A stretch of DNA of 12,210 bases from a virus: the UHGV virus genome UHGV-2091730. One strand, 5' to 3'. Positions 3,351 through 10,791 of the stretch are shown one piece after another; position 1 is the stretch's first letter; each line of letters begins with the position of its first letter. The position numbers and the translations under genes are program-made. Below the pieces are notes generated by a model that saw nothing but the letters and a program-made list of their open reading frames with translations, was not told where the DNA came from and ran no database searches.

Positions 3351-3845
3351 TCATTTCCAATTGCAAGACTGTGAAATTTTTTCCACAACCTTATCAATCT
3401 CAGACAAGTCAAACTCAACTACTTGCATAGTTGATCCATAAGGTTCAAACCCAAAAATAGCTTTTTTATGCTTAGCCAAGGTCTTTATAAATTGTATTGG
3501 TTGTGGAGCAAATGCAGAATCACCGCCTTCCCCACCACCCCAAACACTCTTGACCGGCTTTCCGCCATCTAACCGCACTGTAATTCTTGGGTTGTCCGAA
3601 CCCATATAATCATTGAATGATAAATAGGCATCTGTTTTGTTATCACTACAACGCAACACCAGTGAAGTTGCACGATCAGTACCTGCTTTGTTATATGAAT
3701 CTGGTGATAAATTAAGAGCCACAAAGTCAGTCTGGTCAGTCATTTTATTTATCTCAGACTTTGTTATCCACGGCCCTAACTTCTCTACACCAGCATTTGC
3801 TGTAAACGAGGCACTTATGACAAAGGCTAAAATAAATTTTCTCAT
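3351..3845 (-). CDS. Secreted/periplasmic protein of unknown function (164 aa) with N-terminal signal peptide
   Basis: N-terminus MRKFILAFVISASFTANA is a Sec signal peptide with no lipobox. AGGAGA 7 nt upstream of the ATG. Own terminator. Two Cys in the mature part. AT-rich. Confidence 0.7.
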   Translation of the reverse strand: MRKFILAFVISASFTANAGVEKLGPWITKSEINKMTDQTDFVALNLSPDSYNKAGTDRATSLVLRCSDNKTDAYLSFNDYMGSDNPRITVRLDGGKPVKSVWGGGEGGDSAFAPQPIQFIKTLAKHKKAIFGFEPYGSTMQVVEFDLSEIDKVVEKISQSCNWK

Positions 3846-4165: not shown

Positions 4166-4863
4166 ACACTTGCTCCTTTCAGCCCAAACTTAGCTTTGAT
4201 TTCTGCGATCTTCGCCAGAGCCTGTGCACGATTTAGAGGTCTACCGCCCATGACAGGAAGCTGTTTTACTGGTTCAGGTATCGCCTCACCACGGTTAATT
4301 CGCGCGGTCATACAGGACAGTTCATCGGCAGCCTTGCGCCGTAATTCCGCATCAGTAAGCGCATTGGCCCGCATGTTCTGGTACAGGTTGGTAACCAGCC
4401 AGTAATGCGCGTTCGATTTCCACGGATAAGACTCTGCATCCGGATACAGGCCACGCTTCCGGCAATACTCGTAAACCATATCAACCAGCTCGCTGACGTT
4501 TGGCAGCCCGGCGTTAACGGATGCTTCTTCCCGGCACCAGGCGACAAACTGCCCGGGTGATGGCAGGAATGGTCGATTCTGCCGACGGGCTACGCGCATT
4601 CCTGCGTTAACCTGTTCCATTGTGGTGATCCCGTTTTCCCGGAAAGCCAGAACCCACTGGCGGCGGATTTCGTTCAGTTCATTCTGGTCACGGTTAGCCA
4701 GGCTCGCCGGGAAAGTTGCCAGTAACTGGCTGAACACACCGTTGATGATCTGCGCTACCTGCTGTACCTGCGGCTTTTCGTCGTACTGTTCCGGCATGTT
4801 GTTGGCGATCCGACGCATCTGCTCACGGTCAAAGTTAACCATCTGTGCGGCGATGTTTTTCAT
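4162..4863 (-). CDS. P: Replication protein P (DnaB helicase loader), lambda type
   Basis: 233-aa translation MKNIAAQMVNFDREQMRRIANNMPEQYDEK... recognised as lambda P. ATG overlaps the O stop (ATGA). Confidence 0.92.
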   Translation of the reverse strand: MKNIAAQMVNFDREQMRRIANNMPEQYDEKPQVQQVAQIINGVFSQLLATFPASLANRDQNELNEIRRQWVLAFRENGITTMEQVNAGMRVARRQNRPFLPSPGQFVAWCREEASVNAGLPNVSELVDMVYEYCRKRGLYPDAESYPWKSNAHYWLVTNLYQNMRANALTDAELRRKAADELSCMTARINRGEAIPEPVKQLPVMGGRPLNRAQALAKIAEIKAKFGLKGASV

Positions 4864-5354
4864 AAATCCATCCCGTAAATCCAGTCAGTGTTTGTCAGGT
4901 CGAGTTTTGGTTTTCTGGCTGTCACGCCAGCCTGTTGCTTGTTACGGTTGATTTCGAGCTGGGTCCACTTGTCGCGGAGTTTAGCCGGACTCAGCACGTT
5001 ACCGGACCAGAAGTTGTCCTGGCATGCCCAGCGGAACAGCACGCACATGTCGCGGTGGTTACGTCCATCACGTTCACGCATCAGGCGGATATCGTTAGCC
5101 CACCCTGCAAAATTCGGTTTTCTGGCTGATGGCGCGATGGTCTTCACCATGTCAAACATCCACTCTGCGGCGGTCAGGTCTTCTGCTGTCCCCCACTTGC
5201 TGCCGCTCTGAATTGCAGCATCCGATTTCATCACAGGAAGATCGTTTTCTGGCTGGTCAGAGGATTCGTCAGAATTCTCGGACGAAAAAGGTTTTATATT
5301 GTCTTTTGTTAGTTTGTCTTTTGTGTTTACCTGATTCGGGTACCTGGACTGCAT
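4860..5354 (-). pseudogene. O: Replication initiator O, C-terminal fragment only; N-terminal domain and ori iterons absent
   Basis: From LTKDNIKPFSSENSDESSDQPEND onward it matches the lambda O C-terminal half. The first ATG has a TAG two codons upstream and no RBS. The AT-rich ori-proximal segment and GAATTC (5272-5277) are kept, but no iterons. Confidence 0.8.
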
Positions 5355-5542
5355 CAGCTAATTTACGCGGACGACTTTATCTGCACCGCGGCATCGAGCG
5401 CACTTATACCCGTGATTTGCTCGTGGAAGTTTTTCTCGACGGACGCGGTAACGGCCTGAATCACTAATCCCCTTTCCTGTTTTCCTATTCAGCCTGGCAT
5501 TTCGCGGGCGATATTTTCACAGCCATTTTCAGGAGTTCAGCC

Positions 5543-5839
5543 ATGAACGCTTATTACATTCAGGATCGTCTTGAGGCTCAGAGCTGGGCGCGTCACTACC
5601 AGCAGATCGCCCATGAAGAGAAAGAGGCAGAACTGGCAGACGACATGGAAAAAGGCCTGCCCCAGCACCTGTTTGAATCACTCTGTATCGATCATTTGCA
5701 ACGCTGCGGGGCCAGCAAAAAAGCCATTACCCGTGCGTTTGATGACGATGTTGAGTTTCAGGAGCGCATGGCAGAACACATCCGGTACATGGTTGAAACC
5801 ATTGCTCACCACCAGGTTGATATTGATTCAGAGGTATAA
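5543..5839 (+). CDS. gam: Gam (RecBCD inhibitor), short 98-aa form
   Basis: [54 protein letters not shown]... recognised as lambda Gam. An in-frame TAA at 5465-5467 rules out the long form. Confidence 0.92.
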
Positions 5840-5844
5840 AACGG

Positions 5845-6630
5845 ATGAGTACAGCACTCGCAACGCTGGCAGGGAAGCTGGCTGAACGTGTCGGCATGGA
5901 TTCTGTCGACCCACAGGAACTGATCACCACTCTTCGCCAGACGGCATTTAAAGGTGATGCCAGCGATGCGCAGTTCATCGCATTGTTGATCGTCGCCAAC
6001 CAGTACGGCCTTAATCCGTGGACGAAAGAAATTTACGCCTTCCCTGATAAGCAGAACGGCATCGTTCCGGTGGTGGGCGTTGATGGCTGGTCCCGCATCA
6101 TCAACGAAAACCAGCAGTTTGACGGCATGGACTTTGAACAGGACAACGAATCCTGCACATGCCGGATTTACCGCAAAGACCGCAATCATCCGATCTGCGT
6201 TACCGAATGGATGGATGAATGCCGCCGCGAACCATTCAAAACCCGCGAAGGCAGAGAAATCACGGGGCCGTGGCAGTCGCATCCCAAACGGATGTTACGG
6301 CATAAAGCCATGATTCAGTGTGCCCGTCTGGCCTTCGGATTTGCTGGTATCTATGACAAGGATGAAGCCGAGCGCATTGTCGAAAATACCGCATACACTG
6401 CAGAACGTCAGCCGGAACGCGACATCACTCCGGTTAACGATGAAACCATGCAGGAGATTAACACTCTGCTGATCGCCCTGGATAAAACATGGGATGACGA
6501 CTTATTGCCGCTCTGTTCCCAGGTATTTCGCCGCGACATTCGCGCATCGTCAGAACTGACACAGGCCGAAGCAGTGAAAGCTCTTGGATTCCTGAAACAG
6601 AAAGCCACTGAGCAGAAGGTGGCAGCATGA
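5845..6630 (+). CDS. bet: Bet (Red-beta single-strand annealing protein)
   Basis: 261-aa translation [59 protein letters not shown]... recognised as lambda Bet. Confidence 0.95.
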
Positions 6631-8040: not shown

Positions 8041-8262
8041 ATGGCAGACATAATTGATTCAGCATCAGAAATTGAAGAATTACAGCGCAACACAGCAATA
8101 AAAATGCGCCGCCTGAACCACCAGGCTATATCTGCCACTCATTGTTGTGAGTGTGGCGATCCGATAGATGAACGAAGACGCCTGGCCGTTCAGGGTTGTC
8201 GGACTTGTGCAAGTTGCCAGGAGGATCTGGAACTTATCAGTAAACAGAGAGGTTCGAAGTGA
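8041..8262 (+). CDS. TraR/DksA-family C4 zinc-finger protein (73 aa)
   Basis: CxxC-x14-CxxC (CCEC ... CRTC) after an acidic/helical N-terminus (MADIIDSASEIEELQRNTAIKMRRLNHQ), typical of phage TraR-like proteins. Confidence 0.7.
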   Translation: MADIIDSASEIEELQRNTAIKMRRLNHQAISATHCCECGDPIDERRRLAVQGCRTCASCQEDLELISKQRGSK

Positions 8263-8414
8263 GCGAAATTAACTAGAAGCCAAAGATAAAATCATCGCTG
8301 AGCAGGAGAAAATCGCTAACGGAGAAAAGACAGTAAGTCAGTATATGAAAACCGCATGATATCATCAGATAAAAATCGATCGTAAAGCGAAATATTCATA
8401 CCAGAATAAACGAG

Positions 8415-8438
8415 TCGAGGTAAATTATATTACCTCGA
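8415..8438 (-). terminator. Possible terminator hairpin downstream of the membrane-protein gene
   Basis: 8-bp inverted repeat TCGAGGTA / TACCTCGA with 8-nt loop, followed on the minus strand by a modestly T-rich stretch. Weak. Confidence 0.3.
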
Positions 8439-8472
8439 TAAATTAACTAAAACTTGCCCGCTATATACTATC

Positions 8473-9075
8473 TCATTCAGTATCATCACGCGCGGTCTGT
8501 GCATATGTCACTACCGCACCTAATGTATTAATTTTCTTTTCAACATAGATAATATTATCGTACTCATAATTGCCATACGGATAGCAAATGCGAATATTCT
8601 CATGTAGATCGGGGTCATCCACCTCAGCTCCAGAACAACTTTTTGAACTACCGGAAGTATACCGATACGGTGCAACATAAGACGATGTCTCTCCAGGCAA
8701 AAAATAAGTTAGTGTTGTAAGGGGTATAATCAGAAAAAATCCAGAAAATATGCATATCCCTGCATAAACCTTAAGGTATGCTGACAGACTCTTCCAGCCG
8801 CTTTGTTTTACTATCCCCTTCTTAACCCAAAACAGAGATAACAGAAAAGCTATTCCCATGCTAAACAGAATGTAATAGTGGGATATACTCTGATTAAGAA
8901 ACGTGACCCTGTAGATATCTGCCCGCCACCAGAAGAAAAGGAAAATAAAGATCAGCCCTGAAACTGTCATGCAAATCAAATAAGGATACGAATCTTTTTT
9001 CATGTTTAGCGCCCATAAAATTTTTCCTGACCCGGACAAATTTACCATCCATTTTTTGCGCAGAAAATAGCTCAT
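8473..9075 (-). CDS. Integral membrane protein of unknown function (200 aa; three predicted TM helices, about 60-aa soluble C-terminal tail)
   Basis: Long ORF on the strand opposite to all flanking phage genes. About 35 percent GC by hand count. Hydrophobic stretches LICMTVSGLIFIFLFFWW, YYILFSMGIAFLLSLFWV, VYAGICIFSGFFLIIPLTTLTYFL. Start uncertain: no strong RBS at any in-frame ATG. Confidence 0.6.
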   Translation of the reverse strand: MSYFLRKKWMVNLSGSGKILWALNMKKDSYPYLICMTVSGLIFIFLFFWWRADIYRVTFLNQSISHYYILFSMGIAFLLSLFWVKKGIVKQSGWKSLSAYLKVYAGICIFSGFFLIIPLTTLTYFLPGETSSYVAPYRYTSGSSKSCSGAEVDDPDLHENIRICYPYGNYEYDNIIYVEKKINTLGAVVTYAQTARDDTE

Positions 9076-9317
9076 TACTTACTGCACAATAATACACAAA
9101 ATTGCGTAAATTTTTTGCATGGATTTTAGCTCTTTCAGCCGACATTTAAGGGGTAAATAGCATTTCCTAAAAGCAACTGCACCAACCCAACAGAATGGGC
9201 TACCGCTTACGTTGAGAGCAAAAAAGTGTATAGCAGCAATGAACAGCATCCTCGCACTGACGAGGATTTCTTTTATCTGAACTCGCTACGGCGGGTTTTG
9301 TTTTATGGAGATGATAA

Positions 9318-9485
9318 ATGCACTTCCGAGTCACAGGTGAATGGAATGGAGAACCATTCAACAGAGTTATCGAAGCCGAGAACATCAGCGACTGCTATGA
9401 CCACTGGATGCTGTGGGCGCAGATAGCACATGCAGACGTAACCAATATTCGAATTGAAGAACTGAAAGAACACCAAGCCGCCTGA
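9318..9485 (+). CDS. 55-aa hypothetical protein (MHFRVTGEWNGEPFNRVIEAENISDCYDHWMLWAQIAHADVTNIRIEELKEHQAA), conserved lambda ORF just upstream of xis
   Basis: GGAG 7 nt upstream of the ATG. Stop lies inside the terminator loop. Same 39-nt spacing to xis as the equivalent lambda ORF, from memory. Confidence 0.6.
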   Translation: MHFRVTGEWNGEPFNRVIEAENISDCYDHWMLWAQIAHADVTNIRIEELKEHQAA

Positions 9486-9497
9486 TGGCGGTTTTTT
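9477..9497 (+). terminator. Rho-independent terminator between the 55-aa ORF and xis
   Basis: GCCGCC-TGAT-GGCGG hairpin followed by TTTTTTCTT. Confidence 0.6.
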
Positions 9498-9524
9498 CTT
9501 GCGTGTAATTGCGGAGACTTTGCG

Positions 9525-9743
9525 ATGTACTTGACACTTCAGGAGTGGAACGCACGCCAGCGACGCCCAAGAAGCCTTGAAACAGTTCGTCGATGGGTAC
9601 GCGAGTGCAGGATATTCCCACCTCCGGTTAAGGATGGAAGAGAGTATCTGTTCCACGAATCAGCGGTAAAGGTTGACTTAAATCGACCAGTAACAGGTAG
9701 CCTTTTGAAGAGGATCAGAAATGGGAAGAAGGCGAAGTCATGA
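9525..9743 (+). CDS. xis: Excisionase Xis
   Basis: 72-aa translation MYLTLQEWNARQRRPRSLETVRRWVRECRIFPPPVKDGREYLFHESAVKVDLNRPVTGSLLKRIRNGKKAKS recognised as lambda Xis. 23-nt overlap with int. Confidence 0.95.
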   Translation: MYLTLQEWNARQRRPRSLETVRRWVRECRIFPPPVKDGREYLFHESAVKVDLNRPVTGSLLKRIRNGKKAKS

Positions 9744-10791
9744 GCGCCGGGATTTACCCCCTAACCTTTATATAAGAAACAATGGATATTACTGCTACAG
9801 GGACCCAAGGACGGGTAAAGAGTTTGGATTAGGCAGAGACAGGCGAATCGCAATCACTGAAGCTATACAGGCCAACATTGAGTTATTTTCAGGACACAAA
9901 CACAAGCCTCTGACAGCGAGAATCAACAGTGATAATTCCGTTACGTTACATTCATGGCTTGATCGCTACGAAAAAATCCTGGCCAGCAGAGGAATCAAAC
10001 AGAAGACACTCATAAATTACATGAGCAAAATTAAAGCAATAAGGAGGGGTCTGCCTGATGCTCCACTTGAAGACATCACCACAAAAGAAATTGCGGCAAT
10101 GCTCAATGGATACATAAACGAGGGCAAGGCGGCGTCAGCCAAGTTAATCAGATCAACACTGAGCGATGCATTCCGAGAGGCAATAGCTGAAGGCCATATA
10201 ACAACAAACCCTGTCGCTGCCACTCGCGCAGCAAAATCAGAGGTAAGGAGATCAAGACTTACGGCTGACGAATACCTGAAAATTTATCAAGCAGCAGAAT
10301 CATCACCATGTTGGCTCAGACTTGCAATGGAACTGGCTGTTGTTACCGGGCAACGAGTTGGTGATTTATGCGAAATGAAGTGGTCTGATATCGTAGATGG
10401 ATATCTTTATGTCGAGCAAAGCAAAACAGGCGTAAAAATTGCCATCCCAACAGCATTGCATGTTGATGCTCTCGGAATATCAATGAAGGAAACACTTGAT
10501 AAATGCAAAGAGATTCTTGGCGGAGAAACCATAATTGCATCTACTCGTCGCGAACCGCTTTCATCCGGCACAGTATCAAGGTATTTTATGCGCGCACGAA
10601 AAGCATCAGGTCTTTCCTTCGAAGGGGATCCGCCTACCTTTCACGAGTTGCGCAGTTTGTCTGCAAGACTCTATGAGAAGCAGATAAGCGATAAGTTTGC
10701 TCAACATCTTCTCGGGCATAAGTCGGACACCATGGCATCACAGTATCGTGATGACAGAGGCAGGGAGTGGGACAAAATTGAAATCAAATAA
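9721..10791 (+). CDS. int: Integrase Int (tyrosine recombinase), lambda type
   Basis: 356-aa translation MGRRRSHERRDLPPNLYIRNNGYYCYRDPRTGKEFGLGRDRRIAITEAIQ... recognised as lambda Int. Confidence 0.97.
   Translation: MGRRRSHERRDLPPNLYIRNNGYYCYRDPRTGKEFGLGRDRRIAITEAIQANIELFSGHKHKPLTARINSDNSVTLHSWLDRYEKILASRGIKQKTLINYMSKIKAIRRGLPDAPLEDITTKEIAAMLNGYINEGKAASAKLIRSTLSDAFREAIAEGHITTNPVAATRAAKSEVRRSRLTADEYLKIYQAAESSPCWLRLAMELAVVTGQRVGDLCEMKWSDIVDGYLYVEQSKTGVKIAIPTALHVDALGISMKETLDKCKEILGGETIIASTRREPLSSGTVSRYFMRARKASGLSFEGDPPTFHELRSLSARLYEKQISDKFAQHLLGHKSDTMASQYRDDRGREWDKIEIK

Follow-up and report, generated by a model that had tools for sequence, protein, structure and literature searches.

HK97 gp15, a small inner-membrane protein encoded by a moron, is said to block genome entry, as Cumby and colleagues reportedly found in 2012. 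SieA of phage P22 is a three-helix inner-membrane exclusion protein of 162-164 amino acids (aa), which is expressed by the prophage from its own promoter and blocks DNA delivery (PMC10883804). In P2-like phages, the locus between gpA and gpQ was defined as an anti-phage hotspot by Rousset et al. 2022; in P2 this locus is occupied by old and tin, and of eight further candidate systems three proved active (PMC9122126). A 2026 study reported that the defense loci of 19% of P2 elements contain unknown genes alone, with 15-32% of these unknown P2 proteins scoring as antiviral (PMC13586616). Here, we analyzed an opposite-strand membrane-protein gene in the UHGV virus genome UHGV-2091730 (12,210 nucleotides, hereafter the window; positions are counted from its first letter), located in the stretch from 8263 to 9317. 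The locus is best read as a moron of ~0.8 kb, a self-contained transcription unit lying antisense in the leftward early operon of a 434-type prophage, and we estimate a probability of about 0.4 that its product mediates superinfection exclusion at phage entry.

A single-gene cassette foreign to the lambdoid backbone

The window covers the left arm of a lambdoid prophage that has decayed and is integrated at the lambda attachment site. Its plus strand reads gam, bet, exo, an orf60a-like gene, an orf63-like gene, a small open reading frame (ORF), a TraR/DksA gene, ORF55 (9318-9485), xis and int (9721-10791), followed by ybhC of the host. On the minus strand, the interval from the TraR-like gene to ORF55 contains one long ORF, 8473..9075, of 200 aa, corroborating a preliminary description of this DNA in which a lone minus-strand gene was noticed among the plus-strand genes from gam to int. 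The gene was also described there as AT-rich, at about 35 percent GC; it is indeed AT-rich relative to the gam-to-traR block (50.5% GC), and the value we measured is 38.8% for the ORF, with 37.3% for the shared cassette delimited below and 46.1% for the block from orf55 to int. The proposed equivalence to the position of ea22/ea8.5 on the lambda map is roughly correct, and the exact counterpart is CPT_434_36 of phage 434, a “putative membrane protein” of 188 aa with a TTG start at exactly the same position. The whole 1,055-bp stretch (8263-9317) is 99% identical to phages 434, mEp332 and 2B8, in which the gene lies between the TraR-like gene and tL4/ORF55-xis-int.

The window was aligned by blastn with P2-type cassette sequences (L023, L003 and L004), which defined a mobile cassette at 8366..9140 (minus strand). 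This segment is 76% identical over 778 bp to the gpQ-gpA segment of an E. coli P2-like prophage and ~70% identical to Salmonella P2-like prophages over 9136/9099-8505. The shared DNA extends 137 bp 5’ of the start codon and 107 bp 3’ of the stop codon, and an additional 44-bp match is located at 8273-8316.

The cassette carries its own candidate regulatory elements. A candidate extended -10 promoter element, TGgTAAATT, lies at 9039..9047 (minus strand), and the pattern TGnTAAnTT recurs 43-48 nt 5’ of the ATG in the lambdoid allele, the E. coli P2 alleles, two Salmonella P2 lineages and a Cedecea chromosomal copy; a generic sigma-70 -35/-10 scan did not call this element. Judging from its position, transcription would start near 9032. 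Three direct repeats with 10-bp phasing and related to TTGTGCA (TTTACGCAAT, TTTGTGTATT and ATTGTGCAGT) occupy 9081..9110 on the minus strand, making them possible regulator-binding sites at about -50 to -75. Cleaner copies of the repeat (ATTGTGCA) are found at the same place in the P2 cassettes, three each in Salmonella (L004, about 5895-5930) and E. coli (L023) and two in L003; the first Salmonella copy, read on the opposite strand, fits the DnaA-box consensus, TTWTNCACA. The TTGTGCA motif alone showed no enrichment within the window. Downstream of the gene, 35 nt 3’ of the stop codon, a scan identified a terminator-like hairpin at 8415..8438 (minus strand; -12.9 kcal/mol, z -3.0) followed by a moderate T-run, which is inside the shared cassette; the P2 cassette has a weaker hairpin at the corresponding site. 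The cassette is bounded on its upstream side by two tandem terminators on the plus strand (9248..9298), namely tL4 of 434 (9248-9267, annotated as t-L4 in the older 434 int-xis entry M60848) and a second one at 9279-9298; they fold at -20.9 kcal/mol (z -3.8) and end the leftward early operon transcript. An Rfam search of the window returned no RNA family. The cassette is antisense to pL transcription and consists of repeats, a candidate extended -10, one gene and a terminator hairpin. With its foreign GC content, its sharing with P2-like prophages, its conserved promoter-like element and its terminator, the locus has the features of the single-gene membrane moron proposed in the preliminary description, and in its structural half that interpretation is well supported.

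The annotation of phage 434 places a consensus CII site (TTGT-N6-TTGT) just upstream of the gene, at 9086-9099, where it overlaps the repeats. This raises the idea that the gene serves the phage’s own lytic growth or establishment rather than the lysogen, for instance as an establishment function activated by CII, as a protein that times lysis or as an aid to injection, and three-helix membrane proteins do include class I holins. However, the repeats are also present, and cleaner, in P2-like prophages, which to our knowledge lack CII, and a CII-specific reading of them is therefore unsupported. By our estimate, TTGY-N6-TTGY is expected several times by chance per 48-kb genome. The gene is also antisense to the early-left operon and distant from the lysis genes, and it is intact in remnants unable to grow lytically and at non-phage chromosomal sites. 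We consider a role in the phage cycle very unlikely.

Start codon and selection on the reading frame

Annotated starts in public records differ, giving products of 200, 188 or 176 aa. RefSeq lists the ORF as a 200-aa hypothetical protein, a length obtained from a 24-codon upstream extension (9004..9075, minus strand) annotated by the Prokaryotic Genome Annotation Pipeline (PGAP). We aligned 19 diverged homologues (43-78% identity), and the Met start at ATG 9003, which is Met25 of the 200-aa ORF, is common to all 19. In every non-lambdoid allele, the frame is interrupted by a stop 1-18 codons ahead of this ATG, and no other in-frame ATG lies upstream: the E. coli P2-borne allele has an in-frame TAA a few codons 5’ of the start ATG, and Salmonella has a TAG directly after the counterpart of ATG-9075. 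Within the lambdoid group, contig L030 carries a 1-bp indel in the supposed extension and encodes a 176-aa protein that is 100% identical. Because the homologues share the Met start and other alleles have upstream stops or the indel, we assign the coding sequence of the membrane protein to 8473..9003 (minus strand; 176 aa plus stop, MKKDSYPYL...ARDDTE). Judged from this alignment, the true start is almost certainly ATG 9003, and the 9004..9075 extension is probably not translated. The transcription start predicted from the candidate promoter lies downstream of ATG-9075, in agreement with the 176-aa start. The 200 aa given in the preliminary description should consequently be replaced with 176.

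The frame is under purifying selection. Against the P2-borne alleles, the ratio of nonsynonymous to synonymous substitution rates (dN/dS) is 0.09-0.17, with synonymous divergence saturated, and it reaches its minimum, 0.06-0.10, in the C-terminal third. This indicates that the ORF did not arise by chance. One could still suppose that the ORF is a non-functional or decaying remnant, as the Shine-Dalgarno sequence read in the E. coli alleles is weak, the public annotations use three different starts, and shortened 112-aa versions are common in another allele group. However, a dN/dS of about 0.1 over saturated synonymous divergence, the retention of full length at 43-78% identity in at least seven genera, and a confident fold prediction all oppose decay, and on the selection analysis this explanation is effectively refuted.

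Two other frames of the region were considered and set aside. ORF-22+ of M60848 uses a different frame from the conserved one. The 56-aa ORF at 9079-9249 (minus strand), annotated in 434 as CPT_434_35, a “putative membrane protein”, lies mostly outside the DNA shared with the P2 cassette and has no homologue there; judging by this comparison, it is probably not a gene.

Predicted structure and topology of the protein

An AlphaFold model built with the family alignment had a mean predicted local distance difference test score (pLDDT) of 84.8. It contains helices at residues 5-29, 38-61 and 69-101 (176-aa numbering) and, at residues 105-171, a beta domain of five strands; one further short strand is located within loop 1. 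The three predicted transmembrane helices and their loops (residues 5-101) are encoded at 8701..8991 on the minus strand, with helix 1 at 8917-8991, helix 2 at 8821-8892 and helix 3 at 8701-8799, and Kyte-Doolittle hydropathy gave three membrane segments consistent with the model. The three helices expected from the first inspection of the sequence are therefore retained. The C-terminal 75 residues (8476..8700, minus strand) form a five-strand beta-barrel domain, predicted to be periplasmic, and were modeled with a pLDDT of 91.5 when predicted alone. This domain holds most of the invariant residues of the family, including C123 and C140 (codons 8635-8637 and 8584-8586, minus strand) and the CSGA and ICYP motifs, so the C-terminal part, earlier described as a tyrosine- and acid-rich tail, is instead a folded domain.

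We deduced the topology from the family-wide Lys+Arg counts, which average 1.8 in the N-terminus, 1.9 in loop 1 and 4.3 in loop 2 and point to an N-in/C-out arrangement. The N-terminus is thus predicted to be in the cytoplasm and the C-terminal domain in the periplasm. The periplasmic prediction draws on these positive-inside counts, on the two invariant cysteines, and on the loop-1 strand, which was modeled as a beta strand adjoining the C-terminal domain. The invariant cysteine pair suggests a disulfide between C123 and C140 in the exported domain, and the beta-barrel is probably disulfide-bonded. The predicted cytoplasmic part is limited to ~4 residues at the N-terminus and a single loop of ~18 residues. 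On this model, the best reading is that the protein acts in the envelope.

The topology bears on the possibility, also named in the preliminary description, that the protein is an abortive-infection effector, which would sense infection and depolarize or permeabilize the inner membrane, so that the cell dies before phage release. A small multi-helix membrane protein, encoded by a single prophage gene and belonging to a family found in a defense hotspot, fits such a role, and membrane effectors are frequent in abortive systems. However, a partner sensor gene is neither in the cassette nor conserved alongside it, the few cytoplasmic residues could hardly sense a cytoplasmic cue, the constrained part is the periplasmic beta domain and not the helices, and PADLOC gave no match. 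Given the tiny cytoplasmic exposure and the conserved periplasmic domain, exclusion at entry is a better fit than an abortive response to a signal in the cytoplasm, and we regard the latter as unlikely.

Scans of the protein against Pfam, NCBIfam and PADLOC found no family, with PADLOC-DB 2.0 empty at E ≤ 1, and a search of the Protein Data Bank (PDB) sequences with the family profile gave nothing below E 0.65, in line with the initial impression that the protein resembled no recognizable family. The lone Pfam match, DUF6057 (E 0.069), was judged to be noise. The sole library family matched was PHROG 1416 (E 2e-50), whose function is unassigned. Its profile has 90 positions and covers only residues 113-200 of the 200-aa ORF, corresponding to the last helix and the beta domain, and it may have been built from shortened gene calls such as the 112-aa and 81-aa forms found among the relatives.

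Distribution and relatives

Only five of 50,697 phage records contain the gene (434 twice, 2B8 twice and mEp332); the other ~209 lambdoid records match the ORF55-proximal flank only, and lambda is not among the carriers. Among complete E. coli genomes, the module was counted at a coverage of 80% or more in 905 of 5,426 (~17%). The O157:H7 prophage at ybhC has a frameshifted int and a truncated bet, and its membrane-protein gene is intact. A search of 5.8 billion proteins yielded 74 clusters, all from Enterobacteriaceae and all annotated as “hypothetical”, while a profile search of 1.8 billion cluster representatives gave only 61 matches; a follow-up search from one distant representative extended the family to Proteus. 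One apparent relative, the 3,074-aa repeat protein P0117 with 11 profile matches, proved to be an artefact of cysteine spacing and composition. Full length is maintained at 43-78% identity over at least seven genera.

Among the homologues examined in genome assemblies, several are located in P2-like prophages, between the portal gene gpQ and the replication gene gpA: an E. coli homologue with 78% identity, Salmonella homologues with 70% and 58%, and a Klebsiella michiganensis homologue with 57%. Across E. coli, Salmonella and Klebsiella, the alleles in this gpQ-gpA position are 45-80% identical. The homologues of Enterobacter, Klebsiella, Cedecea and Proteus (43-55% among those aligned) form single-gene chromosomal islets. 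Among 80 IMG/VR contigs with a homologue, 64 are lambdoid and carry a single allele (97% identity or more), 14 are P2-like with diverse alleles (51-80%) in the gpQ-gpA position, and two are neither, one of which (L105) has the gene at a prophage edge beside an integrase. One lambdoid allele against diverse P2 alleles implies that the diversity resides in the P2 locus, and from these identities the lambdoid copy appears to stem from a single transfer, recent and highly successful.

Shortened forms of the protein also occur. A 112-aa form, which starts at the position of V65 of the 176-aa protein and comprises the last helix and the beta domain, is present on at least 1,000 contigs; it and an 81-aa form belong to the E. 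coli P2-type allele group (P0131, P0133 and P0138), and at least one complete-genome copy is interrupted by IS1.

The orphan chromosomal copies, found outside prophages in Enterobacter, Klebsiella, Cedecea and Proteus, make a non-phage envelope role a serious rival. In this case, the protein would be a lysogenic-conversion or host-fitness factor unrelated to phages, whose periplasmic domain protects or modifies the envelope; variants include immunity to a bacteriocin, colicin or contact-dependent toxin that acts in the periplasm or at the membrane, and a stress or colonization factor. The Proteus islet additionally has an Imm33-like gene, the high conservation of the periplasmic domain is expected if its partner is a conserved bacterial component or a toxin, and a disulfide-containing periplasmic domain anchored in the membrane is typical of certain colicin immunity proteins such as Cmi. 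Virulence and other cargo is also known in the P2 hotspot. However, no cognate toxin gene lies beside any copy examined, the protein has no similarity to immunity families in Pfam or NCBIfam, and the diverse phage-borne alleles are all concentrated in one locus whose characterized cargo is mostly anti-phage. We consider this explanation possible though somewhat doubtful.

Other features of the prophage

The final plus-strand gene ahead of the cassette, directly adjoining it, is the TraR/DksA-type C4 zinc-finger gene (8041-8262; Pfam E 7.7e-9, PHROG 54). On the other side of the cassette, the window lacks ORF114, which separates ORF55 from xis in phage 434 (L001, 5252-5596), and xis follows ORF55 almost directly (9486-9524). 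The immunity region has been lost: between the ORF at 4860-5354 and gam, the repressor, cro, N, cII, cIII and kil are all absent. This 164-aa ORF abuts the P gene, and gam starts ~190 bp further (window 4860-5543); the related TUM9757 prophage has a 339-aa replication gene where the window has the 164-aa ORF. The 4860-5543 junction was found in one piece in no complete E. coli genome, so the window derives from a strain or deletion variant outside that set.

The prophage also carries further minus-strand genes. Between ninB and the replication genes, two overlapping AT-rich genes at 2090-2886 (34.9% GC) encode a 138-aa HEPN-domain protein (Pfam E 3e-6; PADLOC candidate PDC-M28A, E 1.8e-7) and a 133-aa protein of no family, which may form a toxin-antitoxin or defense pair within the nin region. 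At 3351-3845 (39% GC), a gene encodes a 164-aa protein whose N-terminus has a signal-like segment; it barely passes the Pfam family VasI, which is associated with type VI secretion (26.7 bits vs a cut-off of 26.5), and its gene is apparently a further add-on gene of the prophage.

Other cargo was observed in phage 434 and in a P2-like prophage. The b region of phage 434, beyond attP (L001, 7459-9055), contains fragments of NleC-like and NleH-like type III effector genes and an IS1414 remnant, and the O157:H7 prophage CP-933K, which shares the membrane-protein module, has such effector genes as well. The gpQ-gpA hotspot of the Klebsiella michiganensis P2-like prophage (L027, 2281-5623) encodes, besides the homologue, a protein of 790 aa that matches AAA_16 weakly, together with a 279-aa partner; PADLOC contains neither, and the two may be an uncatalogued STAND-type defense pair.

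Discussion

The preliminary description was essentially right once the start, the GC content and the “tail” are corrected, and its reading of the gene as an exclusion-type moron is plausible: the protein represents an uncharacterized, widespread family of a familiar kind. For the functional half of the interpretation, an anti-phage role, the support is circumstantial and includes the predicted topology and the homologues in the P2 gpA-gpQ hotspot; unknown genes at hotspots of this type frequently turn out to be defensive (PMC13586616). We propose that the gene would be transcribed from its own promoter while the prophage is repressed, and that the protein would sit in the inner membrane with its periplasmic domain obstructing genome delivery by incoming phages. 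The target might be a conserved host component, in the inner membrane or the periplasm, on which phages rely during DNA entry or, alternatively, the phage’s own ejection or tape-measure apparatus, and superinfecting phages would in this way be excluded as they enter. The degree to which the periplasmic domain is conserved suggests that its target is conserved as well and perhaps belongs to the host. We also count in favor of exclusion the analogy with P22 SieA and the fact that the gene is intact in defective prophages, both that of O157:H7 and the window, which lacks its immunity region.

Several observations weigh against exclusion. Lambda plates normally on 434 lysogens, so any exclusion is not aimed at lambda. 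In published work on exclusion by 434 lysogens, mEp332, the 434 genome and EDL933/Sakai, we found nothing assignable to the gene (the EDL933 Z-numbers could not be mapped). In addition to the empty family scans of the protein, the comparisons with PADLOC, PHROG, PDB and SieA showed no sequence or fold relationship to a known exclusion or defense protein, and the neighbors of the homologues in the P2 hotspots gave no PADLOC match among those checked. The orphan chromosomal copies suit a general envelope function equally well, and the strong conservation of the periplasmic domain is unlike the fast divergence among SieA types. Finally, the gpA-gpQ locus also holds partition systems, toxins and other non-defense cargo (PMC9122126).

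A bolder version of the exclusion proposal, which we hold only tentatively and think doubtful as a whole, is that the protein is the founding member of an entry-blocking family. Its conserved, disulfide-bonded periplasmic domain, similar to an oligonucleotide/oligosaccharide-binding (OB) fold, would clamp a conserved host component for DNA translocation and exclude phages broadly, and the cassette with its own repeats would shuttle between P2 hotspots, lambdoid prophages and chromosomes, having become fixed in ~17% of E. coli including O157:H7.

Although phage 434 is known from textbooks, its membrane-protein gene has neither a name nor a function. About one sixth of complete E. coli genomes have the same module, which occurs there in defective prophages of the O157:H7 type among others, and it is also found in Salmonella and Klebsiella within P2-like prophages. 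If the product is an exclusion protein, it would add a new family and a new architecture, three helices with a periplasmic beta-barrel, to the few understood inner-membrane entry blocks. Its periplasmic domain would then offer a handle on a host component that phages need for crossing the inner membrane, and the host range of therapeutic and typing phages would be affected on a large fraction of E. coli.

Comparison with known systems

The protein shares three helices with class I holins but is otherwise differently built and placed: it is predicted to be N-in/C-out with a folded C-terminal domain of 75 aa and is encoded in the early-left region, whereas those holins are N-out/C-in, have a short, charged cytoplasmic C-terminus and belong to the lysis cassette. 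RexAB-like systems differ in that the present cassette has one gene, no neighbor conserved across contexts, and no cytoplasmic sensor. HK97 gp15 and other lambdoid morons are similar in kind, each being an independently transcribed add-on gene of foreign composition, flanked by terminators and encoding a small inner-membrane protein. However, no annotated exclusion PHROG was matched, the genome position is another one, and the present protein is larger with a folded periplasmic domain. The cargo of the P2 hotspot is comparable in location, because the homologues (45-80% identity) are in exactly the gpA-gpQ locus, and in form, being a short, swappable module; it differs in that the copy in the window is lambdoid and its protein matches no known system in PADLOC.

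P22 SieA is the nearest analogue, and not a homologue. Homology was rejected because hhalign of the family profile gave a probability of 0.2%, and the SieA motif FxRYPxEAxxFNK is absent from both the protein and the family consensus. In SieA this motif is C-terminal and predicted to be cytoplasmic (PMC10883804), whereas here the conserved C-terminal 75-aa beta domain with its two invariant cysteines is predicted to be periplasmic. The SieA gene lies between genes 16 and 9 of P22-like phages, whereas the present gene occupies the lambdoid early-left region or the P2 gpQ-gpA locus. In their overall design, the two are nevertheless alike: each is a single gene of a prophage, oriented against its neighbors, and each product is an inner-membrane protein of about 160-176 aa that lacks a signal peptide and has three predicted helices.

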